Positions 1,201-24,615 are shown, counted from the stretch's first letter. The stretch is 25,087 nucleotides of DNA from Holdemanella sp. (GCA_963659395.1 CAVKTU010000003.1:1-25087); one strand, 5' to 3'. Notes: generated by a model not told the origin, from the letters alone. A program made the numbers and translations.

Positions 1201-1269
1201 ATGTAAAAACCACCTTGTTGGAAAGTATATAAAATGAAGCGCCAACAAAGAGCCAACGGAAGGGTCGAT

Positions 1270-5565: not shown

Positions 5566-5656
5566 AGCTTTCCTCCGTTTTTTCTTAGATAACTATAAGC
5601 GTTCTTCTTCTTAGAAGAAATAACGACCTCCATCCTTCGCCAAGGGGCGTATAGTT

Positions 5657-6631: not shown

Positions 6632-8353
6632 CTATTTCTTTAGCCAAACGCTTAGGCGGTTATGGCATTCATCCCATTTCTTGCCCGACGAAGCAAAATC
6701 GGTGAAAACCAATCCGTTATTACGGAAGCGCAATCTTTCTTCGCCTTGGGGCGCTTCCATTAGGAAAGATGATAATGTTTCCGCATGGATTTCCTCCAAA
6801 GGGGTTTGAGGATTGTTTTCTTCCGCTACGCATAGGACATAAGGGCCGTATGTGTAGGCCACGCGGTCTTGGCAAAGGTGTTGGTCTATTTGGGCGTTAA
6901 GCAGTAGCGATAAAGAATGCCTTCCCGCTTCGATTAGATGATAAGTCCCAGCCTCAACTGGATGAATGTCACCATCGATGTCAATCGTTGGATCATGGGC
7001 CCATGAGGGAATGCGAAGGTTAATCGGCTTAGAGGAATCGATCCGCAAAGATACATTGGTATCTCCGTCTATTTCGATCGCTAGGCCGTTTGTCTGTATT
7101 TTCCCAGGATAATAGGCATTTAGATAATATGCGTCATCGTCTTCCATGATGGCATCTAGTCCCATGATGCCGATGCCGGCGCTGCCGATGGCGGCGCAGC
7201 ATCCATAGAATTCGCCATCTTCGAAGAATTGAAGACCGCCCGTCGATTTTCCCCGGCAATCATCGACCAAAGGGGAATAGCTATCGAAGGGCAAGGGATG
7301 CAATTCGGTATGGTGATAGAAGTCGTGGGCGTGCTGATGATGGTAATTTATCGGCCCCAAATAAGCGTTAAGAGAGATCCTCTCCATCATATCCATGTAT
7401 TTAGGATCAGGGGAGTCGCGATAGAGAATATCCAAAATCCTCATCCAGGTTACGGATACGCACGTTTCTTGGCAGAAATTCTCGGGCTTGGTGGCTTGCA
7501 TAAGGGAACCATGATTAAATTCTTCACCTTTCGCGCCCGCGTTACCGATGATGGAAGTCTCGCTTTCGTAGACGTCAAAGAAGAAACGGAGAGCTTTGTT
7601 TTTTAACGCTTCGTCGCCAGTTACTTTGGCGTATTGGTACACGCCTTCGAAGAAGGACATCGTTTCGTACGCTTTCGTTTCGGGATATTGATAGGGGAGC
7701 ATTTTGCCCACGCAGTCTAGCAGATTGCCATCTTTTATGCCGCCGGTTGAGACGATATAGGAAGCAAAATCCAAATATTTCTTCTCTTCGGTTACGTTAT
7801 ATAAATTGACGAATGGCTCCAATATCGAAGAGGAATTCACCCCTAGCCACCAACGGCTGGTGTCGGTGATTTCCTTTTTGCCGCCCCCCACATGGTCAAG
7901 AATATAATCAGCGTGTCTTTTGACGGCCGTTAAAACCTTTTCTTTTAAGATCGGATCTTGGCATATCCAAAAGAAATGCAAGAGGCCCGTCACCACGTAT
8001 TTGCGGCACCAAACATCCCATCCCTGGAATTCGTTTTCGACGTTATAGGTTGATATGCGTCCCAATTCGTCTTGGGCGTTTAATAGGCAAGTGACCGCTT
8101 GCGACAAGACCTTATAAAGCTCTTCGCTTGGATTATAGGCGTAGCATAAGCAAGCGCCTCTCATCATCTTGCCGAAATATTCTCCACGCCACCCAAGGTT
8201 TGTCGAATCCTCATGGACGACAAAAGGCTCGACGAAGCGCGCCCAAAGGCCTTCGTTAAGCAATTGCTCTTGTAAGATGAAGGAATACGCTTTTTCGAAT
8301 TGATCTTGGAAGTAGCAGGAGCCAAAGGGCAGGTAATGGAGTTTCTTTTTCAT
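6632..8353 (-). CDS. Glycoside hydrolase, GH127/GH146-like (beta-L-arabinofuranosidase, DUF1680), cytoplasmic
   Basis: GWRGEYFGK, GEEF (acid/base region), QETCVSVTW (7460-7468) and GCCA (7196-7201) match the Glu/Cys Zn-site motifs of HypBA1-type enzymes. C-terminal LRIPSWA and YGPYVL are also typical. No signal peptide. Confidence 0.85.
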   Translation of the reverse strand: MKKKLHYLPFGSCYFQDQFEKAYSFILQEQLLNEGLWARFVEPFVVHEDSTNLGWRGEYFGKMMRGACLCYAYNPSEELYKVLSQAVTCLLNAQDELGRISTYNVENEFQGWDVWCRKYVVTGLLHFFWICQDPILKEKVLTAVKRHADYILDHVGGGKKEITDTSRWWLGVNSSSILEPFVNLYNVTEEKKYLDFASYIVSTGGIKDGNLLDCVGKMLPYQYPETKAYETMSFFEGVYQYAKVTGDEALKNKALRFFFDVYESETSIIGNAGAKGEEFNHGSLMQATKPENFCQETCVSVTWMRILDILYRDSPDPKYMDMMERISLNAYLGPINYHHQHAHDFYHHTELHPLPFDSYSPLVDDCRGKSTGGLQFFEDGEFYGCCAAIGSAGIGIMGLDAIMEDDDAYYLNAYYPGKIQTNGLAIEIDGDTNVSLRIDSSKPINLRIPSWAHDPTIDIDGDIHPVEAGTYHLIEAGRHSLSLLLNAQIDQHLCQDRVAYTYGPYVLCVAEENNPQTPLEEIHAETLSSFLMEAPQGEERLRFRNNGLVFTDFASSGKKWDECHNRLSVWLKK

Positions 8354-10596: not shown

Positions 10597-11511
10597 CTAT
10601 TTGTCGGGCCATGCGTTCTTGAGGTAGTGGTCAATTTTCTCTTTGGCTTCGGACTCGTCCTTGCTATCTTCGTTGAAATATTTCTGACGGTATTTGCCTG
10701 GCGAGCAATTGTAGTGCTTCTTGAATAAGGAATTGAAGTAGCTAAAGGAGGAAAAGCCTAAATTGTTAGCGATTTCCGAAGCGCTGAGATTGGAATAAAT
10801 CAATAAATCCCTCGCGTAGCTCATCTTTTTATCCGTCACGTAATCAAGTAAGGTCTCGCCCGTTTCCTTTTTGAAGATTCTGGATAGATGGGCATGGGAG
10901 AAGCCCGATTCCTTGACGACGTCATTAACCGTCCAATCGATGTTTTGCGGCTCATCCATCTGAATTAGGAGCTTGTTAAGCCAATTGGGTTTGCTTGAGA
11001 AGCTATTCTTATTTGAAACGGCCGTATAGGCATTATCTAAGACCTCTATTATGAGAAAGGATTTGATGGTCTCAACGCGCGGCTGCTCTTCGCTCGTTTT
11101 GATGGTTCTTAGTTCATTCGTTATCTTATCGATGGCGACGTTCGATAAAGGGAAGGAGATTGGCGTGTTTTTGGATAGGTATTCGAAAAGATCGGGGGAG
11201 ATTTGCTCGCAGGCCTTCTTCATGAGATCGACGGCGATCATGATATCGAGGTGGCTGGCGGAAGGGGAGGAATCCTTTAACGAATGGAAATCGCCGGGCT
11301 TTAGTAAGATGGCGTCCCCTTTAATCAGCGTCTCCTGCCTTCCGTTGATTTTATGTTCATATGATCCCATCGTGCAGACGCTAAATTCCCAGAAATCGTG
11401 ATCATGGTAATAAACGTAATCCCTGCTGGCGAAATGAAAGCTCATCCGTCCATATTTGCGATCGATGAGTTTATCGAAGTAGAATGTCCCCATAGTGTGT
11501 TTTTGTAACAT
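10597..11511 (-). CDS. AraC-family transcriptional regulator (cupin plus double HTH; ChbR/RhaS-like)
   Basis: Cupin motifs YHDHDFWEF and LLKPGDFHSL. HTH region SGFSHAHLSRIFKKETGET...LLIYSNLSASEIANNLGFSSFSYFNSLFKKHYNCSPGKYR. Start uncertain (11514 TTG, 11511 ATG or 11493 ATG). Confidence 0.92.
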   Translation of the reverse strand: MLQKHTMGTFYFDKLIDRKYGRMSFHFASRDYVYYHDHDFWEFSVCTMGSYEHKINGRQETLIKGDAILLKPGDFHSLKDSSPSASHLDIMIAVDLMKKACEQISPDLFEYLSKNTPISFPLSNVAIDKITNELRTIKTSEEQPRVETIKSFLIIEVLDNAYTAVSNKNSFSSKPNWLNKLLIQMDEPQNIDWTVNDVVKESGFSHAHLSRIFKKETGETLLDYVTDKKMSYARDLLIYSNLSASEIANNLGFSSFSYFNSLFKKHYNCSPGKYRQKYFNEDSKDESEAKEKIDHYLKNAWPDK

Positions 11512-11554
11512 CAAATCAAACGATTGATGTATTTTGTTTTGTTTCTCCTTCTTT

Positions 11555-11665: not shown

Positions 11666-12412
11666 ATGATCGAATTCCAGGACGTCAGCGTTTATTACGA
11701 AGAGAAAAACGGCAAACTGTTTGCGGCCCTCTCTTCCTTCTCGGCGCAGTTTCTAGAAGGGGAGACGACGGTTATCTTAGGCGAATCGGGATCGGGGAAA
11801 ACGACATTGCTTAAAGCTCTTATCGATGGGGTTTTATACAATGGTGAAATCATGATTAATGGCGTTCCCTTGCGCAAAATGCCCTTAGGGAAAAGGGATA
11901 TCTCCTACGTCAGCCAAGAATTCGATCTGTATCCCAAGATGACGGTCTTCGAAAATATATCCTTCCCTTTGCTCATCCAAAAATTAAGCAAAGACGAAAT
12001 CCGAAGAAGGACGTATGAGATGATTTCCTTTCTCGATTTAGTCCCTTATCTTAGCCGTCAGCCCCGTTATTTATCGGTCGGACAAAGGCAAAAGGTCGCT
12101 TTGGGGAAGGCGCTAATCCGCGATAGCGGAATCTACCTTTTCGATGAGCCGTTTTCGAATTTGGACAAAAGGGCCGCCGAAGAGTTGCTATCATATTTAA
12201 AAGCCTGGTTCGAGGAAAAGAAGAAAACGGTTCTTTTCGTCACCCATTCGGAGAAAGAGGCTCTCTATATCGCCAAAAAGATCATGATACTAGAAAAAGG
12301 AAAAACGATTTTCGTTGGCACGCCAAGCGAGGCTTTATCTTCCTTAAGCCGCGCCGTTAGAGCCTATTTCCCCGATGAAAGCGTAATCAAAGGAGATGGC
12401 GGTCGCCTATAA
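11666..12412 (+). CDS. ABC transporter ATP-binding protein (MalK/PotA-like core, no C-terminal TOBE domain)
   Basis: Walker A GESGSGKT, Q-loop YVSQ, LYPKMTVFENI, signature LSVGQRQ, Walker B/D-loop YLFDEPFSNLD and H-loop FVTHS. 248 aa. Confidence 0.92.
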   Translation: MIEFQDVSVYYEEKNGKLFAALSSFSAQFLEGETTVILGESGSGKTTLLKALIDGVLYNGEIMINGVPLRKMPLGKRDISYVSQEFDLYPKMTVFENISFPLLIQKLSKDEIRRRTYEMISFLDLVPYLSRQPRYLSVGQRQKVALGKALIRDSGIYLFDEPFSNLDKRAAEELLSYLKAWFEEKKKTVLFVTHSEKEALYIAKKIMILEKGKTIFVGTPSEALSSLSRAVRAYFPDESVIKGDGGRL

Positions 12413-12420
12413 TTGCTTAG

Positions 12421-13299
12421 ATGAAGAAAAAGACAGAGTCCATAAACATTTACGGTTCATTGCCGCCGACGAGGAAGAGCGAATTCTTCGATATCGTCAA
12501 AAACCGTTTCGCTTTTCTTCTAAGAATCGGCCTTGTTTTGCTTCTATCTTTTTTGCCGTTGCTCGTCGTTTTTTATTTTAAGAACCGTTTCTCCATCTTG
12601 GCCCTTGCCTCGATGCAAGAGGAAGGGGCCGATATCGCCTCCATTCGATTAGGCTATTCCTTGATGAGCCTCTTGTTTTTAGGTTTCGACATCCTTTCTT
12701 ATCTATTCGTTTTCCTTGGTTTGGCCGGGTCGATGAAAATCATCAAGCTATTGGCCTATCAAGAGCCGCCATTTTTCTGGAGCGACTTCTTTTCGGGAAT
12801 CAAGGAGAATTGGGGGCAATCGCTCTTGCTTTCTTTGTTTTTCTCATTTCCCGTTTCCATCGCCGATTGCTCCCTTTCCTTAGCGAGGATCGCGGAGATG
12901 GAAGCCTTATCTTATTTGGCGTATGCCGCTATCGGGGTGCTGTTTTTCATTTTGTTTCCCGCTTTGCTTATCGCCATGTCGATGAATGCCGTCTATAAAA
13001 ATTCCTTCGGGACGAATCTAAAAGGGGGCTTTCAATTATCCCTAGCTCATTATTGGCCTTACGCATGCTTTTCCTTGCTTGCTTTAGCGGTTTTCGCCGG
13101 CATTGAAGCGATGAACGTCTTCGTTTCGATATGGGTGGATTTAGGGACTTATGTCCTGATAATCGTCCTGTTATTGCCTTTCTATCTATTGGCCTCCCAT
13201 TTATATTCCCTTTATCTTTTCGATTCGCATATAAATAAGGATTATCCCGAAATATGCCAAAAAGGCCTCGCATCCTATTACTTAAGAAAGGAAGAATAA
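12421..13299 (+). CDS. Integral membrane protein, YesL/DUF624-like
   Basis: About 6 TM segments. The motifs FFWSDFFSGIKENWGQSLL and YKNSFGTNLKGGFQLS resemble YesL-family proteins that accompany sugar ABC importers. Starts 8 bp after the ATPase stop. Confidence 0.7.
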   Translation: MKKKTESINIYGSLPPTRKSEFFDIVKNRFAFLLRIGLVLLLSFLPLLVVFYFKNRFSILALASMQEEGADIASIRLGYSLMSLLFLGFDILSYLFVFLGLAGSMKIIKLLAYQEPPFFWSDFFSGIKENWGQSLLLSLFFSFPVSIADCSLSLARIAEMEALSYLAYAAIGVLFFILFPALLIAMSMNAVYKNSFGTNLKGGFQLSLAHYWPYACFSLLALAVFAGIEAMNVFVSIWVDLGTYVLIIVLLLPFYLLASHLYSLYLFDSHINKDYPEICQKGLASYYLRKEE

Positions 13300-13302
13300 A
13301 CA

Positions 13303-13330
13303 AAAAGGCCCCCGATTTAAGGAGCCTTTT
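13303..13330. terminator. Bidirectional Rho-independent terminator between convergent operons
   Basis: AAAAGGC-C-CC...GG-A-GCCTTTT hairpin with A/T tracts on both sides, between the stops at 13299 and 13348. Confidence 0.75.
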
Positions 13331-13347: not shown

Positions 13348-15126
13348 TTAGGCGTCGATGATGGTTATGCCGTCGGGACTTAAATCCCCGCTAGTGAAGA
13401 CGGGAACGCCGGCTTTTTTGCGGATAACGACGTTTTCATAGGAATTCGGGAAGTCGTTTTTAGTATTTTCTCCCGCTAAAGCCGTATTGGATGTGCTGGC
13501 GATATCCTTCATATCGACATAGACGTTTTTGAGTTGAGTGTGGGATTGGAACACGCCGGCGAAAACGCTTGGGTTCCCTCCTAAAGAACTTAATCCTGCT
13601 TTAATATAGATGGCGACGTTTTCGATCAGGGCATTGTTTGTGGTTTCCCATCCGATGAGATAACCGGTGTTAAGATCGGTGAAAGTTATGTCCTTTAAAA
13701 CAGCAGAACTCATTCTTCCGAAGACACCGTATCCATAAATTTGCGCATTGTCAATGGTATGCCCGGCTCCGTCGAAGGTGCCACTGAAGTAATTGAGGCC
13801 ATTGCTATTGGAATAGAAATTCTTTAAATCCGCCCCAAGCACGGCGTACATATGCAAGTCTTCGTCACCATCGGCATCAACGGCGGAGATGAATGAGGTT
13901 AGATCGTCATTTGATTTGATGATTCTATCGACGGCTTTGGCGAGGAAATGGACCTCTTGCCCATCGAGCGTCGTCTTTAGCATCAAGGTGTCGCCACGTT
14001 TTAAAGATGAATAATCTGGCGCCGCTCCGGTGTTATTATCCGTAATAACGCACGTGGAATCGAATTTATCCTTATATCCGCCGCCGATGTCGCTCGAATC
14101 GACTTGTTTGGTGGCGAGGTTATAGTAATAGTGGGTCAAAGCGAGCTCTCCGCAAGAGCAAACATCGCCTTGCTCTGGGCTATAAGAGTACTGATGGATG
14201 ACATTGACCTTGTGACTCACTTTTACTTCGTCGAAGTCGTTGGTGGCGGCCAAAGACGCCGTTAGGGTGTAGGGGCTATTATCCTCTTCCAGGTTTTTAT
14301 ATTGGCTTTGGCTCACTTCGTTATCGTCTTTATCCGTTAACGTGAAGGAGACCTCGCCAAAATCGGAAGTTATCGAACTTAAATTCAAATCGCCATGGCA
14401 AACGATTTCCTTGTCGGCGAAAGGGGTGATCGTGGCAGTGGCCTTATTTACGGTGATATCGCTGATTTCCAGGCTTAAGGAATAATAATGCAGAGTGACT
14501 TTATTATCCCCATAATGGAATTCGTTCGCCCCGTTTTCATAGGTGAAGCTAAGCTCGCTGGTGTCAATATCGACATGGTCGCCTCTTGAGCAGATTCCGG
14601 TTACCTTTAGCCCGCTAGGATCGAAGGTCTCGAGGGCTTGATAAGTCTTTTTAGTCGGCTCATTGACGACAGAGAAAGAGGTTAGATCATGTCCAAGCGG
14701 CAAGCCATAAGAATAGGTTTCGTCACCTTTTTCGCCGCAAGAGCAGGCGTAATAATATTTAGCCGGATCGACGCAAGTGGGCTCGGAGGCGCGATATGCG
14801 TCGCTAATGATCTTCTCGTTATAGGTATGGTCTGACGTCTTTTCGATGACGGTTTCCTTTTTGTAGCCGCAATCGAGGCAGAGATATTCTTTGACCCCCT
14901 CTTTCGAATGCGTGGCGGGGGTGGTCACGGTGCCTTCGTCGAATTCGTGGGATCCGCTTTCGACGTGGCCTTCGTTACCCTCTAAGCAGGTATAGCATGT
15001 CCTTATGTGCGTATTGGCGTCGATGCTGACCCAGGGCCCATAGACGTGATTATGGGTGGAAGCAGGCGCGCAAGAGGTCATTAAGGCCAAGCTGATGAGG
15101 GTGGTTGCAAAATGCTTTCTTTTCAT
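13348..15126 (-). CDS. Lipoprotein with Cys/His-rich repeats, bacterial Ig-like domain(s) and a C-terminal GLUG/beta-helix-like domain
   Basis: Lipobox LMTSC and RBS AAGGAG. Modules HIRTCYTC, PATHSKEGVKEYLCLDCG and PTCVDPAKYYYACSCG. Ig-like motif PTKKTYQALETFDPSGLKVT. The motif FSGTFDGAGHTIDN opens a beta-helix-like region. Confidence 0.75.
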   Translation of the reverse strand: MKRKHFATTLISLALMTSCAPASTHNHVYGPWVSIDANTHIRTCYTCLEGNEGHVESGSHEFDEGTVTTPATHSKEGVKEYLCLDCGYKKETVIEKTSDHTYNEKIISDAYRASEPTCVDPAKYYYACSCGEKGDETYSYGLPLGHDLTSFSVVNEPTKKTYQALETFDPSGLKVTGICSRGDHVDIDTSELSFTYENGANEFHYGDNKVTLHYYSLSLEISDITVNKATATITPFADKEIVCHGDLNLSSITSDFGEVSFTLTDKDDNEVSQSQYKNLEEDNSPYTLTASLAATNDFDEVKVSHKVNVIHQYSYSPEQGDVCSCGELALTHYYYNLATKQVDSSDIGGGYKDKFDSTCVITDNNTGAAPDYSSLKRGDTLMLKTTLDGQEVHFLAKAVDRIIKSNDDLTSFISAVDADGDEDLHMYAVLGADLKNFYSNSNGLNYFSGTFDGAGHTIDNAQIYGYGVFGRMSSAVLKDITFTDLNTGYLIGWETTNNALIENVAIYIKAGLSSLGGNPSVFAGVFQSHTQLKNVYVDMKDIASTSNTALAGENTKNDFPNSYENVVIRKKAGVPVFTSGDLSPDGITIIDA

Positions 15127-15138
15127 TTCTTTGCTCCT

Positions 15139-16008
15139 TTAAGCAATGACGAATCTTATTTTCAAGGTGGCGGCGTTTCGGTAATTGCCATAGGCGTAAG
15201 CCTCGCCGCTATGGATCGCTTTGATCACGCCGTCTTCGACTTTGAGAAGGTCGGTGTTCGACGAAGAATATAGGAGATAAGCGCTTTCGTCTATCTTCCC
15301 ATTGACCGAAACCTCCACGTTCGGAATGAAATCCATTCCCGCGTTAAGGCGCACATAGTAGCCCCCTTCTTCGGGAGAGGCGTTTAAGACATTGAAATAA
15401 ATGTCGTTTTCGACGATTTTGACGAGACAAGACGAAGTGGCTGTTTGCCCATAATAGTCATAGCTAGCGAAGATTCGCGTCTCGCCTTCGTTAAGGGCGT
15501 TTATGGTAACTTCGTTGCCTTGGGTATCTAAACTTAACAAGGTTTTATCCTCAACCGACCACGTTACCATCGCCCCTTCGATGGTTTTGCCTCGATTGAT
15601 TACCATGGCCGTTAATTCGCTCTTGTCACCGACATAAAGGTTCAAGTCGGTTTGGGATAATTTGATGGTCGGGAAGGAGAAGGAGTCATAGACGGTGATT
15701 TCGCATTGCGAAGATAAATCGCCAAATGAGGCGGAGATCGTCGCGCTCCCCACCGATAAGGAACTTAAAACGCCGCGACTAGATACGGTGACGACGTTTT
15801 CGTTAGAGGAAGACCAGGTGACGATTTGCTCTAAATCCGCATTGGCTATATGCAAATCCATCGTGTCATGCAAATCCATTGCGTAGACCGATTCGGCGAA
15901 ACGGATGTCGCTAGAAGAATATGTGATTTCTTCTATGCTTCCTCCTTGGCAAGAAGCAAGGGCGCAAACGGATAGACCCAACAAGATTTTTACGTTCTTC
16001 TTTTTCAT
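15139..16008 (-). CDS. Lipoprotein with three bacterial Ig-like (Big_2) domains
   Basis: Lipobox LASC and RBS AAGGAGG. Repeats VTWSSSNENVVTVSSRGVL..GSATISA, VTWSVEDKTLL..ALNEGETRI and YSSSNTDLLKVEDGVIKA. Confidence 0.85.
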   Translation of the reverse strand: MKKKNVKILLGLSVCALASCQGGSIEEITYSSSDIRFAESVYAMDLHDTMDLHIANADLEQIVTWSSSNENVVTVSSRGVLSSLSVGSATISASFGDLSSQCEITVYDSFSFPTIKLSQTDLNLYVGDKSELTAMVINRGKTIEGAMVTWSVEDKTLLSLDTQGNEVTINALNEGETRIFASYDYYGQTATSSCLVKIVENDIYFNVLNASPEEGGYYVRLNAGMDFIPNVEVSVNGKIDESAYLLYSSSNTDLLKVEDGVIKAIHSGEAYAYGNYRNAATLKIRFVIA

Positions 16009-16020
16009 GGTTACCTCCTT

Positions 16021-18033
16021 TTATATCCCCCAAGAGACATAGATTTCGGATAGATCGCCGTTTTCTGAGTGTTTGGAGAACCCTAAAGCGTCGGCATCTT
16101 GCTTAAATTTGACGCGCTTTTCTTGTAGTTGAGTCGTGGTATAAGAGGAAGAATGGATTTCGAGCAAGGCGTAGCGAGGGAAGATCGATTCAACGAGGAT
16201 GGCATCACGGATTTCGCTATATTTGTCGGGGTTCGTGGTGGCAAGAGACGAAATCGCTTCTAACGCCTCTTCACAAAGGCCTTCCCATCTTTCAAGGAGG
16301 TTTTTAGGCCATATCGATGCGACGTTGATCACATCATAGATGCCGCCGCTAGAGATGTTCGGATAAGCCATCTCTTGCTGCATAGTCCATACGCGCATTT
16401 CTTCGTAGAATTGGCGCATCGGATTGGAGGCTTTGCCATAATATCCGTCGAAGAAAGTGTCGGTAATCTCCTTAACGTTGCTATTGACATCGAAGGCTAT
16501 TTTGGCGTCAATATAGAGCTTCAATCTGTTGAAACCGGTTCTTGCCGAAGAATTATGGGCGTTTTCCATATAAACCATTTTGGCATTATTCTCTTTAAGG
16601 AAACGCATCGTCTCCGGCGTTGCCGAGAAAGAGTTGTATGGATAGAGGTAATTGGAGAAATTGGTTTCATAGCCCCAAAAATAAACATTATCGGAGACGG
16701 CGCTCCAAGCTTTGATGTTATCCGCGTAAACCTCGTTTTCCTCTTCATAGAAACTATGGGTGAAAGAGGCGTCGATGGGGGCGATGTAAACGCAAACGTT
16801 GGGATTGGTGTGAATATTGTTGATGGCTTTGTAGACGCCGTTTTCCTTTACGGCGGGAGCGTTTTCGAAGGCGTGATACGCGAAGAAGGATATGTATATT
16901 TCGCGTTTGGCTTTGCCCGTTTCGTCCGCTATATGTTGATAATGCTCTTGAACGATATCGTCCAAATCGTTGATGAATAGCAAAGCGGTGGAGGAGAAAT
17001 GCCCGCCGTATTGAGAGGATACTTCTTTGCAAGTATCGCAATCGCAGGTGAAATAATTGTCTTCGATTGTGAAGGTGATGTTGGACAGTTCCGGATTCTT
17101 ATCGGCTGTGTTGATAAGAACGTCGGCCGCTGTTTTTTCCATTAACTTCAATTCTTCTTCATCGCCATGCGCGGTATAGCACAATTGGCCGGTGGTTGAG
17201 CCTTTGCTAGAGGACGAACACCCTTCGGATATGGTGCGTGCCGAATACCATTTCGGATGATCTTTTCCATAAGTTTCAGGCGGAAGGTATTGGAAATCGT
17301 TATGGAATTGAATGTTTCCGACGGTCATAAAGAGATCGTTCGCCGTAAAGCCGGCCCCATATCTCCAAGAGGTATCGGGATCATCGATTTTCCTGTAATC
17401 GAAATCGGGCCGTTCGGTAATGTCCATTTGAGGCAAAACCGATCCGTCTTTGCTAAAAGAGATGCTGTTTCCGTAATAAAGGTCGAATCCTAACAAAAGA
17501 TCAAGGAAACGGATGGCCATCGCGGAATAGGAATCTGAACCCGTGCCCATAAGGTATACGGCGTTGTCTTTCGTTTTGATTTCATAGCCGGTTTGGCCAA
17601 GATTTTCGCTTGTGTGCGTAAAGCCGGCCCCGACAAAGGAGGATTCGCTACCGATGACGATCGCTTTGCTTGAGGAAGGAATTGCGTCTCCTTCGGCGAT
17701 GGTATCGTTTTCTACATTGACGCCAGTGGCGTTGAAGATTTGTGTCGCGATATAGTTCGCGGCTGTTTTGGCTGCCGTGTCGTTTATATGGAGAATTCGA
17801 TAATCGGTTGTGTCATTGACGATAAAGGGGACACCGTTATCGTCAGCGCTTTTCACTTGATGGAGCGTCCCGTCGATATGATGGACTTCGTTATCGCTTT
17901 GCGTTTGCGTGGCGGGAGGAAGCGAATTCAGATCACCGTTTTGACTGTCTTTCTGTTCGCCGTTTTCGCTGCAACCAGCTAAAGGAAGGAGCAGGAAGAG
18001 AGGGACAATCCATAATTTCTTTGTCTTTTTCAT
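16021..18033 (-). CDS. DUF4838-like lipoprotein (putative glycoside hydrolase) with a GH20/GH67-type N-terminal domain
   Basis: Lipobox LAGC and RBS GGAGG. Motifs ERPDFDYR, HNDFQYLPPETYGKDHPKWY, QLCYT, EDNYFTCDCDTC, FFAY, IKAW...YFWGY, YIDAKIAFD and FFDGYYG are typical of DUF4838 proteins. Confidence 0.8.
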   Translation of the reverse strand: MKKTKKLWIVPLFLLLPLAGCSENGEQKDSQNGDLNSLPPATQTQSDNEVHHIDGTLHQVKSADDNGVPFIVNDTTDYRILHINDTAAKTAANYIATQIFNATGVNVENDTIAEGDAIPSSSKAIVIGSESSFVGAGFTHTSENLGQTGYEIKTKDNAVYLMGTGSDSYSAMAIRFLDLLLGFDLYYGNSISFSKDGSVLPQMDITERPDFDYRKIDDPDTSWRYGAGFTANDLFMTVGNIQFHNDFQYLPPETYGKDHPKWYSARTISEGCSSSSKGSTTGQLCYTAHGDEEELKLMEKTAADVLINTADKNPELSNITFTIEDNYFTCDCDTCKEVSSQYGGHFSSTALLFINDLDDIVQEHYQHIADETGKAKREIYISFFAYHAFENAPAVKENGVYKAINNIHTNPNVCVYIAPIDASFTHSFYEEENEVYADNIKAWSAVSDNVYFWGYETNFSNYLYPYNSFSATPETMRFLKENNAKMVYMENAHNSSARTGFNRLKLYIDAKIAFDVNSNVKEITDTFFDGYYGKASNPMRQFYEEMRVWTMQQEMAYPNISSGGIYDVINVASIWPKNLLERWEGLCEEALEAISSLATTNPDKYSEIRDAILVESIFPRYALLEIHSSSYTTTQLQEKRVKFKQDADALGFSKHSENGDLSEIYVSWGI

Positions 18034-18034
18034 T

Positions 18035-21034
18035 TCATTTTCCTCCTTGTTTTACTAGGCACTTGGCGGTGGCGTATGATGCGTTTCCGCTTTCGTCGAT
18101 TGCCAGAATCTTAAACGTGTATATTCCCGACGAAGTCGTTTTTATGCTGTTCGATCCTTCGGGCAAGAGGATTTCGTTTCCTAATGGATTTACCACCGAT
18201 TTCACAATGGTGATGTCCTCGCTCGAGGTGAGGTTATCGGTCACTTTAAAATTAGGCATGACGATAACGTCGCCGACTTTAGCCTCCTTCGTCCAACCCG
18301 ATGTGAAGGTGATGACGGGCGCTTCGGAATCCACGCAATTAACGTTATAGGAAAAGATAATTTGGTTAGATCTATTCCCGTTCAAATCGGATTGGTCATC
18401 GATTGTATAGATGAAAGTGTAGCGTCCGTATTTTGTCAATTCGATTTGAAGGTCGTTTTGCTGTTCGTAATTGGCCAATTTATCGCCATTAGCCAAGCAA
18501 ACCGTCTCGCCATCGGGGTCGGTGACGCTTAGGCGCAAATTCGCGACTGGCTGGATGACATCGTTAATCAAAGGGTTTCTAGCGATGTAAACGGCTCCTT
18601 TTTCGTAAGCGCCGCCATATTCGCCATCGACATAATATTCGGGCTCACCGCGATCGGTGGAAGAAGAGGAGAAAACATGGGAATTGATTGACCGAACCGA
18701 ATAAGAAAGATCGGAATCCCCTTTGACGGACACGCTTAATTTGACGAAACGGCTAGGGAAGCTAGCGAAAGGGCTCCCGTCATTATTGCCATTCACTTCG
18801 AAACTAAGGCCGGCGATGGAAACGATGCCATCTTGATATGAATATGTAAACGATGACAAGGAGCTTCCGGAAAGGACATAGTTTCCTCCGTCTAAAATCA
18901 AGGAAGTCTCTTCGTCGGTAATCTTAATCGTCCCTGTGAAAGAGATGTTTTCGTTTTGAGAATCCGTTAAAGTGACGGAGAATTCGTCGACACCGCTAAG
19001 GGAAGAAACGTTGAGACTAAAATTTTCACTGATGAGTTTGGAGAAGAACTTCCAATCCGATTCAGCGCCATTGTTAACGAAATCGATCCCATTGTTGCTT
19101 CCGTTAGCGGTATATCCGCTTCCTAAGAAATAATTTTCGGATTTCAAGCGGTTATTCTCATAAGCGATGATGCCAATTTCCGTCTTTTCGTACACGCAGT
19201 CTTCGCCTTTAAGGAAACGCAGTTTTATGGTATCGCCGTTATTGGAAACAGATGGGGTAAAAGAGGCACCCGCTTGATAAATCTTGCTGCCTGAGGCGTC
19301 GCTTATTTCCACATCGCAAAGGGATTTGTCGGCTTTTCCGTTTTGAAATGTATAGGCATAGACGTTGGGTGTTTTATAACTTTGCCCGCTAATATAGCCA
19401 GTGGCTCCATCGTTTTCGACGCTAGCTAGGACGGCATGATTATTATCGACGATTTCGATCGCCTTGCCGAAAATCGTTTCCGTCCCAAAATAATCCTTCA
19501 CGCTATAACGGAGAGTGTAGTGGCCCGTTTTAAGGGGTTGGGCCTTATTATCTACGATTTGTACTTCGCTATCTTCGCTTCTTAGGCTTGTGGCAACGGA
19601 GAGCTTTCCCGATCCGCCTTTAAGGTTGATGAGCTCTGGGATATCGATGATCGTTCCCACTGGATAGGAATTTTGTATCTCGGTAGAGACAAGAGCGGTT
19701 ATTGGCGATATTTCGCCGCCGACATGCACCCAAAGGATTTCTTTTCCTTCTTGATGGTAGGCGTCTATGGCGCGATAGACGATGGCGTAATACCCGTTTT
19801 TGGTCGGGACGAATTTGTCATCTTTTATCTCGACGCTTTCCGGATTTTCCGAATTGTAGTTGTAATAAACTCTAGTTTCGACGGGGACTACGTTTTTCTC
19901 GCCGTCTTTGGCCGTTGCTTTCGGCACTGGATAAGCCGTCCCAATCCGCCCTTCGGGCAAGGTGTCGTAATCGTTATCCACAGTTACCTTTGGCGGTTCC
20001 ACGTCGTATTTCTTCTGATTGATATCGACGCCTAAGACGCTAGTGACGCAGAATCTCGCAATCGTGTCGTTATAGGTGCCGCACGAGACCGACAGGCGGG
20101 CCCTTCCGCTAGGGAAGCCGCTCCATAATTTCGAATAATAGGTTGAATCATCAAGATCGGAGCATTTTTCGCCGCAGGTATACGTTTCCAAGGTTTTTCC
20201 GTCGACCGCCAATCTAAAGCCATATTGGCTCGGGTCGACCCAGCGGAAGTTGTAGTTGTCGTTGGCTTCTTTGCAGTTAAACGTGAAGGTCGTCTTCGTC
20301 CCGAAGAAGTTCGTTGTCACGTGATGCCCATCGGTATCCCAACCCGCTAAAGTTTGACCGTTTCCGGCGGCTTTCCAATAAGTAATACCCGGATAAACGG
20401 CATCGTAATCGGCGTAGCCGTTGCCTAGGAAAGTCAAATACACGGAAGGGTCGTCAACATCGGTGAAGGTGAAGGTCATTTGACTATAGTCATATTCCCC
20501 TTGCGTTTTCGGGGTGACGAAGCCCGTGACGAGTGGCTGGTCTTTTCGCATGTCGCTGACGTCGATTGGCTCTTCGATAGTCAAGGTGTCGCCTTTCGTC
20601 AAAGAGACGTAAACTCCTTTGGCGCTGGTGTATTCCTTAGCGAATTCGGGAATCTCGTAGCTAATGGAGCTCGTGGAGAGGTTATTATAGGTAAAGAGGT
20701 TCTTCCTCACCATGAAATGCTCTTCGTGGTAAAGGGTCTCGTTTCCTGATAAAGCCGTGTAGGTTATGGTGTAATAGCCGTATTGATCAAGCGTTAAATC
20801 GCTAGAAGAAGTCGAGGTTCCGTCAGGATAAACCATAATTCCCTTGACGGTTTTACCATTATCGAAGGTATAGGAAGGAACCGAAAGGGAATCGCCATAG
20901 TCGTATTCCTCTAATAAAGGAGACTCAAGCTTCGCTCCGCTAGTCGCGAAGGGCAGATTCGCGGCGAGGACGATAGCTAAGCATCCGGAAAGGGAAAAAG
21001 CGGAAAGGCCCAAGATTGCTTTTGTCTTTTTCAT
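18035..21034 (-). CDS. Large (999 aa) exported protein with multiple Ig-like modules and two related non-Ig domains
   Basis: RBS AGGAGG and an ATGA overlap with the permease. N-terminal signal, which also contains LSGC. Ig-like starts DVEPPKV, DRGEPE and DSEAPVI; Ig-like ends YTITYTA, YAIVYRAIDAY, YTLRYSVKDYFG, YTFIYTIDD and YTFKILAIDESGN. Confidence 0.8.
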   Translation of the reverse strand: MKKTKAILGLSAFSLSGCLAIVLAANLPFATSGAKLESPLLEEYDYGDSLSVPSYTFDNGKTVKGIMVYPDGTSTSSSDLTLDQYGYYTITYTALSGNETLYHEEHFMVRKNLFTYNNLSTSSISYEIPEFAKEYTSAKGVYVSLTKGDTLTIEEPIDVSDMRKDQPLVTGFVTPKTQGEYDYSQMTFTFTDVDDPSVYLTFLGNGYADYDAVYPGITYWKAAGNGQTLAGWDTDGHHVTTNFFGTKTTFTFNCKEANDNYNFRWVDPSQYGFRLAVDGKTLETYTCGEKCSDLDDSTYYSKLWSGFPSGRARLSVSCGTYNDTIARFCVTSVLGVDINQKKYDVEPPKVTVDNDYDTLPEGRIGTAYPVPKATAKDGEKNVVPVETRVYYNYNSENPESVEIKDDKFVPTKNGYYAIVYRAIDAYHQEGKEILWVHVGGEISPITALVSTEIQNSYPVGTIIDIPELINLKGGSGKLSVATSLRSEDSEVQIVDNKAQPLKTGHYTLRYSVKDYFGTETIFGKAIEIVDNNHAVLASVENDGATGYISGQSYKTPNVYAYTFQNGKADKSLCDVEISDASGSKIYQAGASFTPSVSNNGDTIKLRFLKGEDCVYEKTEIGIIAYENNRLKSENYFLGSGYTANGSNNGIDFVNNGAESDWKFFSKLISENFSLNVSSLSGVDEFSVTLTDSQNENISFTGTIKITDEETSLILDGGNYVLSGSSLSSFTYSYQDGIVSIAGLSFEVNGNNDGSPFASFPSRFVKLSVSVKGDSDLSYSVRSINSHVFSSSSTDRGEPEYYVDGEYGGAYEKGAVYIARNPLINDVIQPVANLRLSVTDPDGETVCLANGDKLANYEQQNDLQIELTKYGRYTFIYTIDDQSDLNGNRSNQIIFSYNVNCVDSEAPVITFTSGWTKEAKVGDVIVMPNFKVTDNLTSSEDITIVKSVVNPLGNEILLPEGSNSIKTTSSGIYTFKILAIDESGNASYATAKCLVKQGGK

Positions 21035-21921
21035 TTGATACCTCCTACGGTGATATTTCCCAATAGTCTCTTATGAGAGCAAAGGAACAGGATAGTCGGC
21101 GGGAGCAAGGCGATAAAGGCTAAGGCCAATTTCCCTGGGGTGTTGGAGACGAGGTTGTCGGCCCCGTAATTCATCGCGTTGGCGTAAACGGCATAGAAAA
21201 TGGTTGGGTGATTGGGGAGATAGAGGAAAGGGGTCTGATAATCGTTCCAGAAGGTGATGAAATAAATTAGGAAAACCGTGAAGAAAGTGTTCCTGATTAA
21301 GGGGAGCATGATTCGGCACATGATCGTGAAGTTTCCGGCGCCATCGATTTTAGCGGCTTCTGAGAAGGTTTCGGGAACCCCTTTGAAGGTCTCGTAGAAG
21401 ATAAGGAAATATAAGCCGAGGAAGTTCGCTTTCATGATCCATAGGCCCCATATCTGGTCGTAGATCCCCAAAGTGGAGGCCACTTGAATCTCCGAGGCGG
21501 TGCTCCCGACGATCGGAATCATCATGGTGACTAAGACGACGACGTAAAAGACATTGAGGAATTTGTATTTGAAACGGGCGCAGACATAGGCCGTTAGGCA
21601 AGGCACCAACGTTTGCACGAAGGCGCATCCCAGGGCATAAAGGAAAGAATTAAGGAACATTTCGGGCAGACGCACGGAACGGGTCCCGCCGTCGACGGGC
21701 AGTCCATAATTCGAGAAAAAGTATTGGTAATAGGTGGTGATCCATTTCTTTGGGAAGGCGAAGCCGCTGCTGTTGAAGAAGTCGCCGTTGGCTTCTTTGA
21801 AAGTGGTGATGAAGCCCCAATAAAGCAAACCAAAGAGACTTAGTGCATAAATGATGAGAAAGGCTAAAATCACGATCATGAGAGGCGTGAATTTCTTATT
21901 GAATTTACTGATTCTTCTCAT
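21031..21921 (-). CDS. Carbohydrate ABC transporter permease (MalG/UgpE type)
   Basis: FLNSFLYA, AYVCARFKY, EAA loop EAAKIDGAG, FWNDY and C-terminal ITVGGIK. About 6 TM. Confidence 0.93.
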   Translation of the reverse strand: MRRISKFNKKFTPLMIVILAFLIIYALSLFGLLYWGFITTFKEANGDFFNSSGFAFPKKWITTYYQYFFSNYGLPVDGGTRSVRLPEMFLNSFLYALGCAFVQTLVPCLTAYVCARFKYKFLNVFYVVVLVTMMIPIVGSTASEIQVASTLGIYDQIWGLWIMKANFLGLYFLIFYETFKGVPETFSEAAKIDGAGNFTIMCRIMLPLIRNTFFTVFLIYFITFWNDYQTPFLYLPNHPTIFYAVYANAMNYGADNLVSNTPGKLALAFIALLPPTILFLCSHKRLLGNITVGGIK

Positions 21922-21924
21922 CTT

Positions 21925-22878
21925 TCAATCCTCGCTGGGCCCATATTTGTTGAGCAAGAAACGCACCAAGAAGGTAAGAGGTATGGCGATAAAGGAGAAG
22001 ACGATGCCCAAAAGGGCGAGTTTCGGATAGAAGGTATAGCCTTCGTTTCGAAGGGAATTGAAGAGATAATAGCCCAGGGTTTGCATGTCGGTGGGGCAAT
22101 TGGGGCCATAGAAGGAATAGAGGCTGAATTGCTCGGTGAAGATCGTCGCTAAGGAGGTGACGAAGAAAACCTTGAAAGTCGGGAAGACGAGGGGGAAGAC
22201 GATGGAACGGAATTCCCTTATCCCCTTCGCTCCGTCGATCGATGCCGCCTCGAGGATCTCGGGAGAGATGGCGGACATCGCGTTGGCGTACATAAGAACC
22301 GAGGTCCCAAAGCCCGACCAGATATTAAAGAAAATGACGACCGATTCCCTGACCCATAAAGGGTTCCTCGGACCCGTCACCCCGCTCATGCTATTAAGAA
22401 TGGTTTCGGCAAAAGGGAAATCCATGAAGTTCATGTAAAGAAGCACGAGAATCAAGGCCGAGATGATGGAGGGTAGATATAAGACGACGCGGAAGAAGCC
22501 CGATGCGGGCATCTTTTTGGCGATGTAATAAGAGAAAAGGAGACCGAGTGGCGTCCCGATAATGACGCCTGCCGCCCAATTGAGGGTCGACATCCCTAGC
22601 ATGGAAAGGAAGTCTTGGCCGGAAAAGAAATCTTGGCACCAAGACCAATTCTCCAAAAAGGCTGCCCAACTTGTCGTGACCAAATGGCTTTCGTCTAAGG
22701 ACAGATCAAATTTTTGGAAAACCATCAAGAAGGAATTGAAATTGACGCCGAGATAGAAGACGGCGAATTGGGCCGTGGGCCAAATCAATAGCAAAATAAC
22801 GAACAGCAAGTCCTGCCAGCCCGATTTCTTGGCTCGGTTTTTGTCGTTAGCTCTGTTTACTAGGACCGCCGTTTTCAT
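21925..22878 (-). CDS. Carbohydrate ABC transporter permease (MalF/UgpA type)
   Basis: FFRVVLYLPSIIS, WSGFG and EAA loop AISPEILEAASIDGA. About 6 TM. Confidence 0.93.
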   Translation of the reverse strand: MKTAVLVNRANDKNRAKKSGWQDLLFVILLLIWPTAQFAVFYLGVNFNSFLMVFQKFDLSLDESHLVTTSWAAFLENWSWCQDFFSGQDFLSMLGMSTLNWAAGVIIGTPLGLLFSYYIAKKMPASGFFRVVLYLPSIISALILVLLYMNFMDFPFAETILNSMSGVTGPRNPLWVRESVVIFFNIWSGFGTSVLMYANAMSAISPEILEAASIDGAKGIREFRSIVFPLVFPTFKVFFVTSLATIFTEQFSLYSFYGPNCPTDMQTLGYYLFNSLRNEGYTFYPKLALLGIVFSFIAIPLTFLVRFLLNKYGPSED

Positions 22879-22893
22879 TTCCTTGAATCCAAA

Positions 22894-24615
22894 TTAAATG
22901 TTCGACCAATAATTCTTATAGTAGGAATAGGATCCTTCGAAGACATCGGATAAGCTGCCGCGATTGAATTTGAAGGGTTCGGCCGGATAGTTATAATTGC
23001 CGCCGACGGTGCTTCTAAAATAAGCGCTTGGCTCGAAGAGCTCTTGGTGATTCACATAGACGCCTGCTTTAGAAAAGGGATATACCAGCGAAGTGGTGGA
23101 GGCGTTCTTGTATTCGTATAGCGCCTTGCCATAGAGGCTGAGACTATTCTTTTGCTCCTCGCTAAGCTCATAATGCAAGCATCTGGTCGTATAGGTCGTT
23201 TCGGTGAATTTGGCCAATTGCTCGTCGGTGTTCATGAATTGGAGGAAATCTATCGCTAAGGCCTTTTTCTCATCGGAAAGCCCCTTTTTGACGAATTGGA
23301 GGGAATTGAGGATGTCGGTGTAGGTGGCGTGATAAGTGTCGCTAGCTTGCGCCTTTGGGAAAGGCATCAACCCGAAATTTCTTTCGGTCGGGAGTTGCTT
23401 GCCTGGGTAATTGTTATGCATATAATTCCAAGCGTCGGCCGCTTCGTTTTGCCACCATGATCCGTCGATTAGCATCGCGGTGTCTTTTTCTCGGCCGTTC
23501 GTGCCTTGCGATCCATATACGAAAGAGGTTTGGGCGCCGATTTGCGTTTGGGAATTGTTATCGTTTCGCGGATGTTGCCAATCAGTGGTCTGTATTATCT
23601 TTTGCAAGAACGATAGGACGTCATAACGGGATTTGGCTCTGGTTAATTCGTATCCGTTCTTCTCATTTATGGCCAATTCGCCGTCGATTTTTGGATTTCC
23701 GTCGCTATCGAGGACAATTTTACCCGAGCCATCGATTTGCACGAGGCCCGTGGCCGTTCCGTTAAAGGAATATTGAAGTTCCGCTTGCTCATACCCAAGC
23801 AAAGACGAGAGCATGCAGCCGAGCATCGAAGCCGTGTAGGTGTTGTATTCGGAGCCGGCCCAGGCGATCGCGTACCGCTCATCGTGATGGATATAGTCAC
23901 AAAGGAAATAGAACTCGTCGAAGGTCTCGGGGAGGCCATCGTCGGAAGTTCCTTCGATTCCATCGGGTCCAGGCGCCAAATCGTCGGTATCGGGATAGCC
24001 GAAATAGTCATCCCAATTAGCTTTCAAAGAAACATCTGGATGGTCTTTTTTGAAGTAATATCCGCGGCTTTGGAACAAATCGATGTTGTAATTAATGCCA
24101 TAGGTGCCAGAGTAATGCGGAATGCCGTAATAGTGAGTCGTTCCATCATCGGCTTGATATCCATAGAAACTCTTCTGGGCGTCATCCATTTTGCTTTCGA
24201 TCGTTTTGCCCGTTTCGTATGGATTAGCGCCGGTTACGGCTTCGGTTATGTCATCGATGTACCCGTTAGCGACGTAATAGGGGTATTTGGCCTTTTCGGC
24301 GAAATACACTTCATAGTTATTCGTGGCGAATTCGGGCCCTTCATAAGTTCTTTTGTCACCGGTGATCAAGATCTGAACGCCCGTTTTGTCGCCGTATTTG
24401 GTATCGGCATGAAGGGCTTCGTATTCGTTTTTGAGGTTATTGATCCACGTCGTCCCATAGCCGCCGGCGAAATTATGGATCCGGAGTTGTATTTTCGAGG
24501 CGTCGATTATTTCGTCGCCTCCGTCTTGGCCGTCTCCGCCACAAGAAGAGAGCCCCAAACTGGCGCAGGTCGCCAGAAGACCGACGACAAATTTCGATGA
24601 ATTGTTCTTTTTCAT
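22894..24615 (-). CDS. Carbohydrate ABC transporter substrate-binding lipoprotein (family 1-like, enlarged)
   Basis: Lipobox LSSC and RBS GGAG. Motifs YGIPHY..GINYNIDLF, PETFDEF, AMLIDGSWW, FGLMPFP and AIDFLQFM. First gene upstream of two CUT1 permeases. Confidence 0.9.
   Translation of the reverse strand: MKKNNSSKFVVGLLATCASLGLSSCGGDGQDGGDEIIDASKIQLRIHNFAGGYGTTWINNLKNEYEALHADTKYGDKTGVQILITGDKRTYEGPEFATNNYEVYFAEKAKYPYYVANGYIDDITEAVTGANPYETGKTIESKMDDAQKSFYGYQADDGTTHYYGIPHYSGTYGINYNIDLFQSRGYYFKKDHPDVSLKANWDDYFGYPDTDDLAPGPDGIEGTSDDGLPETFDEFYFLCDYIHHDERYAIAWAGSEYNTYTASMLGCMLSSLLGYEQAELQYSFNGTATGLVQIDGSGKIVLDSDGNPKIDGELAINEKNGYELTRAKSRYDVLSFLQKIIQTTDWQHPRNDNNSQTQIGAQTSFVYGSQGTNGREKDTAMLIDGSWWQNEAADAWNYMHNNYPGKQLPTERNFGLMPFPKAQASDTYHATYTDILNSLQFVKKGLSDEKKALAIDFLQFMNTDEQLAKFTETTYTTRCLHYELSEEQKNSLSLYGKALYEYKNASTTSLVYPFSKAGVYVNHQELFEPSAYFRSTVGGNYNYPAEPFKFNRGSLSDVFEGSYSYYKNYWSNI

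Follow-up and report, generated by a model that had tools for sequence, protein, structure and literature searches.

The 25,087-nucleotide stretch of DNA from Holdemanella sp. analysed here (GCA_963659395.1 CAVKTU010000003.1:1-25087; hereafter the window) carries an operon in which a sugar ATP-binding cassette (ABC) importer is co-encoded with four further surface proteins, and this raises the question of why such an importer should travel with so much extracellular protein. It matters because knowledge of how Gram-positive gut bacteria forage for glycans lags far behind that of the Sus-type systems in Bacteroidota. Our analysis indicates that the first six genes of the operon probably form a conserved cassette that serves as the core of a Gram-positive polysaccharide utilization locus (gpPUL), combining glycan capture, surface cleavage, and ABC import. 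The arrangement appears to be a new one, in which an ABC importer, a protein of ~1000 aa with two predicted lectin-like domains (hereafter the large protein), and a DUF4838 lipoprotein constitute an invariant trio.

The operon runs from position 24615 to 13348 on the minus strand and consists of seven co-directional open reading frames (ORFs; Table 1). Calculated from the coordinates, its six junctions measure, in operon order, 15, 3, -4, 1, 12, and 12 nt; the -4 junction is an ATGA in which the stop codon of permease 2 overlaps the start of the gene for the 999-aa large protein. The first gene, encoding the solute-binding protein (SBP), has a GGAG 8 nt upstream of its start; a divergent start on the plus strand, at 25021, lies ~400 bp away across non-coding DNA. 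A consensus scan for terminators identified the hairpin at 13330-13303 as the sole strong terminator-like site on the minus strand. This hairpin starts 18 nt past the last stop codon of the operon and also closes a convergent plus-strand gene pair, and the remaining minus-strand hits within the operon have stems of 5-6 pairs. In total, 19 terminator-like sites were found, compared with 16.7 ± 3.8 in shuffled sequence. The ORF coordinates and the terminator scan agree with an earlier reading of this DNA (the sequence-only reading), which had described seven co-directional genes with gaps of 15 bp or less, one ATGA overlap, and a terminator at the end; likewise, the lengths of the four accessory surface proteins sum to 2,550 aa, as that reading had estimated. 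Besides the SBP, lipoboxes were read in the DUF4838 lipoprotein (LAGC21), the 289-aa immunoglobulin (Ig)-like lipoprotein (LASC20), and the 592-aa lipoprotein (MTSC19); all lipobox calls given here are readings of the translations or matches to a permissive pattern.

The same genes recur in the same order at other loci. The genome (1.42 Mb, 91% complete) contains four copies of the large-protein gene, each located 3' of a permease gene and 5' of a DUF4838 lipoprotein gene. On contig C8, the order is AraC regulator, SBP, two permeases, 988-aa large protein, DUF4838 protein, 595-aa Ig lipoprotein, short ATPase, and membrane proteins. Five further genomes, drawn from the same genus, family, order, and class, supplied seven loci, and all of these (7/7) show the order SBP-permease-permease-large protein-DUF4838-Ig lipoprotein. 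Scanning 185,579 species genomes for one peptide pattern, which was derived from a seven-sequence alignment of the closer family members, gave another 34 loci in metagenome-assembled genomes (MAGs). The MAG loci were annotated with hidden Markov models built from known module copies, and the denominators given for them refer to loci whose contig permits the test. The carriers are Clostridia (Ca. Scatosoma, Lachnospiraceae, Oscillospiraceae, Christensenellaceae, and Anaerovoracaceae) from human, chicken, sheep, deer, and yak gut, together with one Bacilli MAG from horse faeces. In the MAG loci, the large gene is followed by the DUF4838 gene in 29/29 testable cases and preceded by that of permease 2 in 27 of 28, and an Ig-type lipoprotein gene comes after the DUF4838 gene in 26 of 28. 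At most 30 nt separate the large gene from the DUF4838 gene in 38/38 copies. The conservation of this order, left as a question by the sequence-only reading, is thus seen in the three further copies of the genome, in the loci of relatives, and, with few exceptions, in the 34 MAG loci, so that the co-encoding is no accident of neighbourhood. The conserved unit comprises only the first six genes, the gene for the 592-aa lipoprotein being a variable extra.

The modules are also inherited as units. In 27 complete modules, the identity matrices of the SBP, permease 1, permease 2, large protein, and DUF4838 protein correlate with r values of 0.81-0.89 (Mantel p 0.001), to which shared species history contributes. 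The C8 module and locus L020, from another genome of the genus, are mutual nearest neighbours for the five proteins (61, 68, 70, 48, and 59% identity, respectively), whereas the C3 and C8 copies, both from this genome, are only 35, 42, 46, 26, and 41% identical. Agreement of the nearest neighbours for all five proteins was also observed in L021-L023, L030-L031, and L036-L048. Because orthologous modules are close and the paralogues within a genome are distant, the modules must have diverged before these species and are passed on whole. The copy in the window represents an orphan lineage: identity to its best relatives is 30-53%, and for the large protein the best match in a representative library reaches 45%. 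The large protein evolves fastest, retaining 26-48% identity where the permeases keep 42-70%.

Some copies show individual peculiarities. Possible decayed copies were noted at L035 (L035:5004-8016), where the large gene is split into ORFs of 742 and 329 aa, and at L052, where the DUF4838 gene is split into 152 and 524 aa. An in-frame TAG was reported in the large gene of G008 (C13:55246-58263, L012/L026), yet a 1003-aa ORF is intact there and the stop may lie outside the gene. At six loci (L036, L045, L048, L055, L046, and L037), very long DUF4838 proteins (746-2063 aa) are encoded directly upstream of the SBP gene, so that these Clostridia loci hold two DUF4838 enzymes.

The 999-aa large protein matches no Pfam family. 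The AlphaFold2 (AF2) model built from an 81-sequence alignment (pLDDT 91.4, pTM 0.72) is all-beta and consists of an N-terminal helix (residues 5-23) followed by six predicted Ig-like domains and two larger sandwiches resembling concanavalin A (ConA; Table 1). In a VIA-align fold comparison against 48,161 chains, for which the stated background of the tool is a best Z of 7-8, both larger domains matched ConA-like folds with Z values of 9.2-10.2 (141-175 residues aligned, rmsd 3.2-4.1 Å; 5zbt, 4m01, 7exo, 1ciw, 8jp4, 2w68, and 4b1m). These matches include the L-lectin module of SraP, legume-lectin-like proteins, ERGIC-53/Emp47, a sialidase carbohydrate-binding module (CBM) of family CBM40, CBM66, and glycoside hydrolase (GH) family GH16 enzymes. 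The last domain matched PKD-like domains (Z 9.0). Both larger domains can therefore be assigned a ConA-like beta-sandwich fold at a moderate Z; as this Z moderately exceeds the background, the assignment is reasonable, and carbohydrate binding is a predicted property. Searched as a whole chain with Foldseek, the model retrieved only generic multi-Ig chains (TM about 0.1), and a profile search of the PDB retrieved the cadherin-like modules of SraP (E 1e-5). The predicted folds are of a glycan-binding type, in line with the capture role that the sequence-only reading had proposed for the surface proteins as a group.

The large protein belongs to a sizeable family. An exhaustive profile-free search found 1685, 1431, and 839 cluster representatives at E ≤ 1e-3, 1e-10, and 1e-30, respectively, and nearly all of the 150 homologues listed are ~1000 aa in length and align end to end. 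A word-index search recovered only seven relatives, which reflects a limit of its sensitivity, given the 1685 representatives found exhaustively. Conservation is highest in lectin-like domain 1 and the next Ig domain and lowest in lectin-like domain 2. The conserved residues of domain 1 (D158, D182, D192, Q227, H238, D278, D293, D295, and W304) are candidates only for sugar or metal binding. The catalytic motif of GH16 enzymes is E-[ILV]-D-[IVAF]-[VILMF](0,1)-E. Searched as a regular expression, it was found nowhere in the window protein and in one of the 150 homologues, there outside the ConA-like domains. GH16-type catalysis in lectin-like domain 1 was rejected on the basis of the missing motif, and both ConA-like domains are accordingly taken to be lectin-like and non-catalytic.

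In the 999-aa large protein of the window, an LSGC18 sequence sits within the longer hydrophobic helix at the N-terminus, and a C-terminal anchor was found in 0/150 family members. Matches to the permissive lipobox pattern were few among the large proteins (7 of 32) but common among the SBPs (23 of 27), the DUF4838 proteins (29 of 31), and the Ig proteins (24 of 26); most large proteins have a long N-terminal hydrophobic segment in its place. This segment may be a signal-anchor or a cleaved signal peptide, either of which fits the data.

The sequence-only reading had viewed the accessory proteins as standing in place of the enzymes of typical operons. This view is incorrect, as the gene following that of the large protein encodes the domain that provides catalysis in GH163 and GH185. 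Its 670-aa product matches PF16126 (DUF4838) over residues 200-543 and profile positions 17-324 of 325 (1.1e-43; 150.1 bits against a cut-off of 26.6). In the account given in PMC10570127, DUF4838 is the catalytic, GH20-related TIM-barrel domain of these two families, and two characterised members of the superfamily are recorded. The founder of GH163 described there, BT1035 of Bacteroides thetaiotaomicron, is a surface endo-beta-N-acetylglucosaminidase that cuts the GlcNAc-beta1,2-Man linkage of complex N-glycans, and the founder of GH185, Sp_0475 of Streptococcus pneumoniae, is a 6-sulfo-beta-GlcNAc-ase in which Q174, H227, D309, and Y436 are important residues (PMC10570127). The operon therefore does carry an enzyme.

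Residues H244, D325, Y386, N433, W443, W453, Y455, and E615 are invariant in all 31 module-linked DUF4838 proteins, position 283 is Q or E in 30 of the 31, and the lipobox Cys is kept in 29. His, Asp, Tyr, and Gln/Glu are residue types also given as important in Sp_0475 (PMC10570127), and the His-to-Asp spacing is 81 here compared with 82 there, but the order of Gln and His differs. The catalytic machinery is likely to be retained in the 670-aa protein. Like BT1035, as that enzyme is described, the 670-aa protein is predicted to be a lipoprotein at the cell surface, and PF16126 is common to both. It differs from the characterised DUF4838 enzymes in having no F5/F8 module and in its setting: it belongs to a monoderm's ABC-importer operon, BT1035 to a SusCD polysaccharide utilization locus, and Sp_0475 to the cytoplasm. 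No usable solved relative was found in PDB sequence searches with either the protein or a profile as the query. Immediately after D325, a cluster of Cys residues (C285, C330, C332, and C335; QLC...D-x4-C-x-C-x2-C) is kept in 30-31 of the 31 module-linked proteins, and may represent a metal site beside the active site.

The third element of the trio is the importer. The SBP, which is unusually long at 573 aa, matches SBP_bac_8 in Pfam (28.9 bits; cut-off, 27), and its carbohydrate-SBP matches in NCBIfam are weak. Permease 1 matches BPD_transp_1 (7.2e-10, Pfam) and gives partial NCBIfam matches to MalF, GlcT, and UgpA; permease 2 matches BPD_transp_1 (2.9e-11, Pfam), UgpE (6.2e-21), and MalG (8.6e-13, both NCBIfam). 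An extracellular SBP and two MalF/MalG-type permeases, as expected of a CUT1-type importer, are thus present. The ATPase encoded next to the operon departs from the full MalK/MsmX type, being a nucleotide-binding domain without the C-terminal regulatory domain; this 248-aa protein aligns with approximately positions 1-240 of the UgpC, GlcV, MalK, and WtpC models of NCBIfam (347-369 positions). It likely energises the importer. No ATPase gene lies beside the module in any of the 34 MAG loci (0/34). Firmicutes often use one shared MsmX/MsmK-type ATPase for several importers of this type, which would account for its absence from these loci.

Taken together, these data make the following mechanism likely. 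The membrane-tethered 999-aa protein would catch a complex glycan via its two predicted lectin-like domains, and the DUF4838 lipoprotein would then cut the glycan at the cell surface, by analogy with BT1035 (GH163). The SBP lipoprotein and the two permeases would import the fragments, with the short ATPase as the motor, and the GH127-like enzyme encoded nearby would finish the breakdown inside the cell. A stable complex would not be needed, as co-tethering in one membrane would suffice. Several observations weigh against this mechanism. The score of the SBP is barely above the Pfam threshold. The Z values of 9-10 for the lectin folds are middling relative to the best background of 7-8, and a fold alone shows no function. 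Locus L047 is an exception to the conserved context, with a GH115 gene before the large gene and no adjacent ABC importer. The known DUF4838 activities concern GlcNAc linkages, yet the sole intracellular enzyme encoded nearby is GH127-like, and no GH130 was seen in the genome at 91% completeness. Finally, the order H244, Q/E283, and D325 differs from the order Q174, H227, and D309 given for Sp_0475, in a comparison of residues that are unaligned.

A gpPUL is minimally defined by one or more enzymes that degrade polysaccharides, a system for transporting carbohydrates, and a regulator (Sheridan et al. 2016, PMC5320581; restated in a 2026 review, PMC13543919). By family assignment, the window offers candidate enzymes in the DUF4838 domain and the GH127-like gene at 6632-8353. 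It also offers a transport system in SBP_bac_8, the two BPD_transp_1 permeases, and the ABC ATPase at 11666-12412, and a regulator in the AraC-family gene at 10597-11514, which would control the operon. The locus thus falls within this definition and represents a variant of a known strategy rather than a new class. Of the utilisome-like capture system put forward by the sequence-only reading, a conserved cassette for capture, cleavage, and import is likely to stand, as such a variant. In the gpPULs described so far, the CBMs are located on the enzymes themselves, whereas here a separate lectin-array protein of ~1000 aa is invariably encoded between permease 2 and the enzyme, which in every case belongs to the DUF4838 type. 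A literature search, with most subscription journals outside its reach, found no description of the trio, in agreement with the statement in the sequence-only reading that no characterised example of this architecture was known.

The closest functional parallel is with the SusCD utilisomes of Bacteroidota, which White et al. reportedly described in 2023. The likeness is one of functional logic only, in that proteins for glycan binding and for endo-cleavage at the surface are co-encoded with a transporter that has a substrate-binding lipoprotein; what defines a utilisome is its physical assembly. The system considered here has a cytoplasmic-membrane ABC importer and belongs to a monoderm without an outer membrane. 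As no TonB-dependent receptor or SusD family was found by Pfam among the 18 window proteins scanned, the cassette, having neither SusC nor SusD, is not a member of the SusCD utilisomes.

The sequence-only reading made a stronger proposal, namely that the four surface proteins and the SBP assemble on the ABC importer into a stable complex that captures and cleaves glycans and hands the fragments directly to the SBP, as a monoderm counterpart of the SusCD utilisome. We consider this unlikely, and the same degree of doubt applies to its structural detail, in which the ~1000-aa double-lectin protein would act as a stalk docking the DUF4838 glycosidase and the Ig lipoprotein beside the importer, with its ligand domains swapped for each glycan. 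Strict gene order, tight junctions (the ATGA and the uniformly short gap between the large gene and the DUF4838 gene), and core proteins that co-diverge, all five of them, would be expected of such an assembly, but co-inheritance and tight spacing are equally expected in any co-regulated operon. Most large proteins are without a lipid anchor and their three partners have one, so that docking could retain the large protein at the surface; however, its long N-terminal hydrophobic helix can anchor it alone. The conservation of lectin-like domain 1 and the next Ig domain, together with the variability of domain 2, fits a docking face and a ligand face, but the rapid evolution of the large protein relative to the permeases suits ligand diversification better than a rigid interface, and the third lipoprotein ranges from 289 to 1984 aa. 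If the assembled machine did exist, capture, endo-cleavage, and SBP loading would be united in one machine re-used for many glycans in gut bacteria with small genomes.

In a second alternative, the large protein would act together with the Ig lipoproteins as SraP-like adhesins for attachment to the host or to particles, with an incidental or regulatory link to the importer. Residues 630-999 do resemble the binding region of SraP from Staphylococcus aureus (4m00/4m01/4m03), in which a legume-lectin-like L-lectin module is followed by cadherin-like Ig modules; the alignment with 4m00 covers 308 residues at Z 10.2, with an rmsd of 20 Å because the domain angles differ, and the SraP cadherin-like profile match points in the same direction. 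The large protein, however, lacks both serine-rich repeats and an LPXTG anchor (a cell-wall anchor was found in 0/150 homologues), contains two lectin-like and six Ig domains, and belongs to a transporter operon. Its gene lies between those of a permease (27/28) and a glycosidase (29/29 testable), with both of which it co-diverges, and the several diverged copies per small genome, each next to different glycosidases, look like nutrient specialisation. An adhesin role is therefore very improbable. Equally remote is recycling of the cell's own envelope, in which the DUF4838 enzyme would trim a GlcNAc-containing wall polymer and the importer recover the fragments: the DUF4838 enzymes described in PMC10570127 cleave GlcNAc linkages and the parts are tethered at the cell's own surface, but at least four diverged copies per 1.4-2.0-Mb genome, a patchy occurrence in close relatives (1/24 and 1/10 same-genus genomes), and the AraC-type regulators and flanking GH2, GH36, GH78-like, GH115, GH127, GH130, and rhamnose catabolism genes fit accessory foraging loci rather than envelope housekeeping.

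For the favoured capture-cleavage-import cassette, the flanking genes hint at possible substrates. The enzymes encoded around the copies, mostly without a signal peptide, include many GH2 enzymes as well as GH130, GH20, GH36, GH78-like rhamnosidases, GH29, GH115, GH127, GH1, and GH32, and are accompanied by a sialate-O-acetylesterase-like protein, GtaA-like proteins, rhamnose catabolism genes, and glucuronate isomerase. The combination of GH130 and GH20 at several loci would match N-glycan breakdown of the kind known for GH163, and other flanking enzyme sets point to plant glycans. The enzyme gene near the operon in the window is GH127-like; two GH20-like genes are located elsewhere in the genome, and no GH130 gene was found in this 91% complete assembly. 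As the flanking enzymes vary from copy to copy, the cassette probably serves as a general scaffold that different loci apply to different glycans.

The distribution of the cassette is patchy, and it is expanded where present. The large protein was found in 1 of 24 other genomes of the same genus, in 0 of 16 from other families of the order, and in 4 of 399 other genomes in an even sample of the window's phylum (1 of 10 for the same-genus genomes of that sample). The order of one Clostridia carrier yielded it in 7 of 150 other genomes. An even sample of that carrier's phylum yielded it in 0 of 400 other genomes, with two candidates scored per genome in each of the two phylum samples; the label 'widespread' was rejected on the basis of this last result. 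The Clostridia carrier G435, a 2.0-Mb human-gut MAG (the genome of L027), has eight family matches, at least seven of them near full length, and the genome of the window has seven DUF4838 matches in addition to its four large-gene copies. Four to eight diverged copies in genomes of 1.4-2.0 Mb represent a large investment for reduced genomes, which suggests that the cassette is their main access route to complex glycans. It is a defined six-gene unit whose central lectin-array family of ~1000 aa, with 839 cluster representatives at the strictest threshold, has no Pfam entry. It offers candidate new DUF4838 specificities and a candidate new class of surface glycan-binding proteins, and it allows one to ask whether monoderm ABC importers work with assembled surface partners.

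Table 1. Features of the operon and its surroundings. Positions are those of the window, except for the domains of the 999-aa protein, which are given in residues.
Feature	Position	Strand	Description
SBP	22894..24615	-	573 aa; operon gene 1; lipobox LSSC25; SBP_bac_8
Permease 1	21925..22878	-	317 aa; BPD_transp_1; MalF/UgpA-like
Permease 2	21031..21921	-	296 aa; BPD_transp_1; MalG/UgpE-like
999-aa protein	18035..21034	-	Exported or N-terminally anchored; Ig and ConA-like domains, predicted
Domains of the 999-aa protein	Ig ~35-111; ConA-like 1 112-335; three Ig 341-625; ConA-like 2 624-801; two Ig/PKD-like 791-999	-	AF2 model
DUF4838 lipoprotein	16021..18033	-	670 aa; PF16126; predicted surface glycosidase
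Ig lipoprotein	15139..16008	-	289 aa; Big_2-type; short member of the module's variable third surface lipoprotein
Cys/His lipoprotein	13348..15126	-	592 aa; last gene of the operon; variable extra
Terminator-like hairpin	13303..13330	-	11-pair stem, 5 G-C pairs, T-rich tail
Polytopic membrane protein	12421..13299	+	292 aa; comes right after the short ATPase
ABC ATPase	11666..12412	+	248 aa; ABC_tran 9.9e-27; short MalK/UgpC-like
AraC-family regulator	10597..11514	-	HTH_18 7.7e-22 and AraC_binding
GH127-like protein	6632..8353	-	PF07944 3.6e-33; no signal peptide

The last two genes of the operon encode lipoproteins that may act as additional, fast-evolving binding proteins. The 289-aa lipoprotein matches Big_2 (5.5e-11, Pfam); it had been described as a triple-Ig protein, and three Big_2-like repeats can indeed be read in the sequence, of which Pfam calls one. 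Lipoproteins of 595-1459 aa are encoded at the same position in C8, L020, and L025, and their N-terminal part is homologous to it; across the copies of the module this third lipoprotein varies in length from 289 to 1984 aa.

In an alignment with four homologues, the 592-aa lipoprotein was seen to begin with repeats rich in Cys and His, which are followed by two Ig-like domains (~150-310) and a C-terminal module containing FxGTFDGxGHTI. Its match to Big_3 (0.0011) is below the Pfam cut-off. The AF2 model, based on five sequences, has a pLDDT of 60 and is confident only for residues 150-310, so that the earlier label 'beta-helix' is unconfirmed. A word-index search gave three weak matches besides the protein itself, and PDB sequence searches gave none. 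The C-terminal module (~398-570; window positions 13348-14150) shows a resemblance to Peptidase_M26_N/Glug that is below threshold only, and is homologous to the N-terminal module of two DUF4838 proteins of 973 and 986 aa (E 8e-11 and 5e-16; L063:1286-4207 and L020:929-3889), one from this genome and the other from a congener. Its fusion to DUF4838 in these proteins ties the 592-aa protein functionally to DUF4838 enzymes. Relatives of the protein are encoded beside some module copies only (L021, L022, L058, and C65), and the Bacilli MAG from horse faeces has the same seven-gene order as the window. The possibility that the 289-aa and 592-aa proteins are the two parts of a split long third lipoprotein was rejected because the C-terminal parts of the long lipoproteins show no similarity to the 592-aa protein, and the one Bacilli MAG with both genes at full size also rules it out.

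The genes downstream of the operon have counterparts at other copies of the module. Paralogues of the short ATPase and of the membrane protein encoded after it, which matches no Pfam or NCBIfam family, adjoin other module copies (C8, L021, and L023), and the pair also occurs on contigs C34, C60, and C162 of this genome; membrane-protein paralogues were found in C8, C34, C60, C162, and L020-L023. At least five short (235-267 aa) MalK/UgpC-like ATPases without the C-terminal regulatory domain are encoded in the 1.4-Mb genome (window, C8, C34, C60, C162, and C10), usually near sugar-importer loci, and most are followed by a polytopic membrane protein of ~280-290 aa without a family; in C8 and C60, two small membrane proteins are located between the two. 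The AraC-family gene lies 1.8 kb from the end of the operon, and AraC genes flank the module in C8, L020, L022, and L026 and in 12 of the 34 MAG loci; the neighbouring regulator likely controls the locus. The GH127-like gene is the only one of its kind in the genome, and such genes are members of the module operons of the relatives L022 and L026. Its product is likely the intracellular finishing enzyme of the locus.

The remaining genes of the window were annotated as follows. A 587-aa secreted protein with Listeria-Bacteroides (Flg_new) repeats and a C-terminal part without a family is encoded at 8512-10275 (minus strand), and Flg_new proteins of 900-1500 aa come after the module in L026, L040, L048, and L054. 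The region 4012-6559 has a gene for an FAD amine-oxidase-like protein of 517 aa and, divergent, one for an EamA transporter. A two-component pair occupies 1270-3932 (minus strand), where the gene for a 628-aa multi-pass sensor (His_kinase, PF06580/HATPase_c) overlaps that for a 266-aa response regulator with a weak Trans_reg_C domain. Finally, positions 1-1248 (minus strand) encode 416 aa of a membrane protein with a long Lys/Glu-rich middle, which is truncated by the start of the window.

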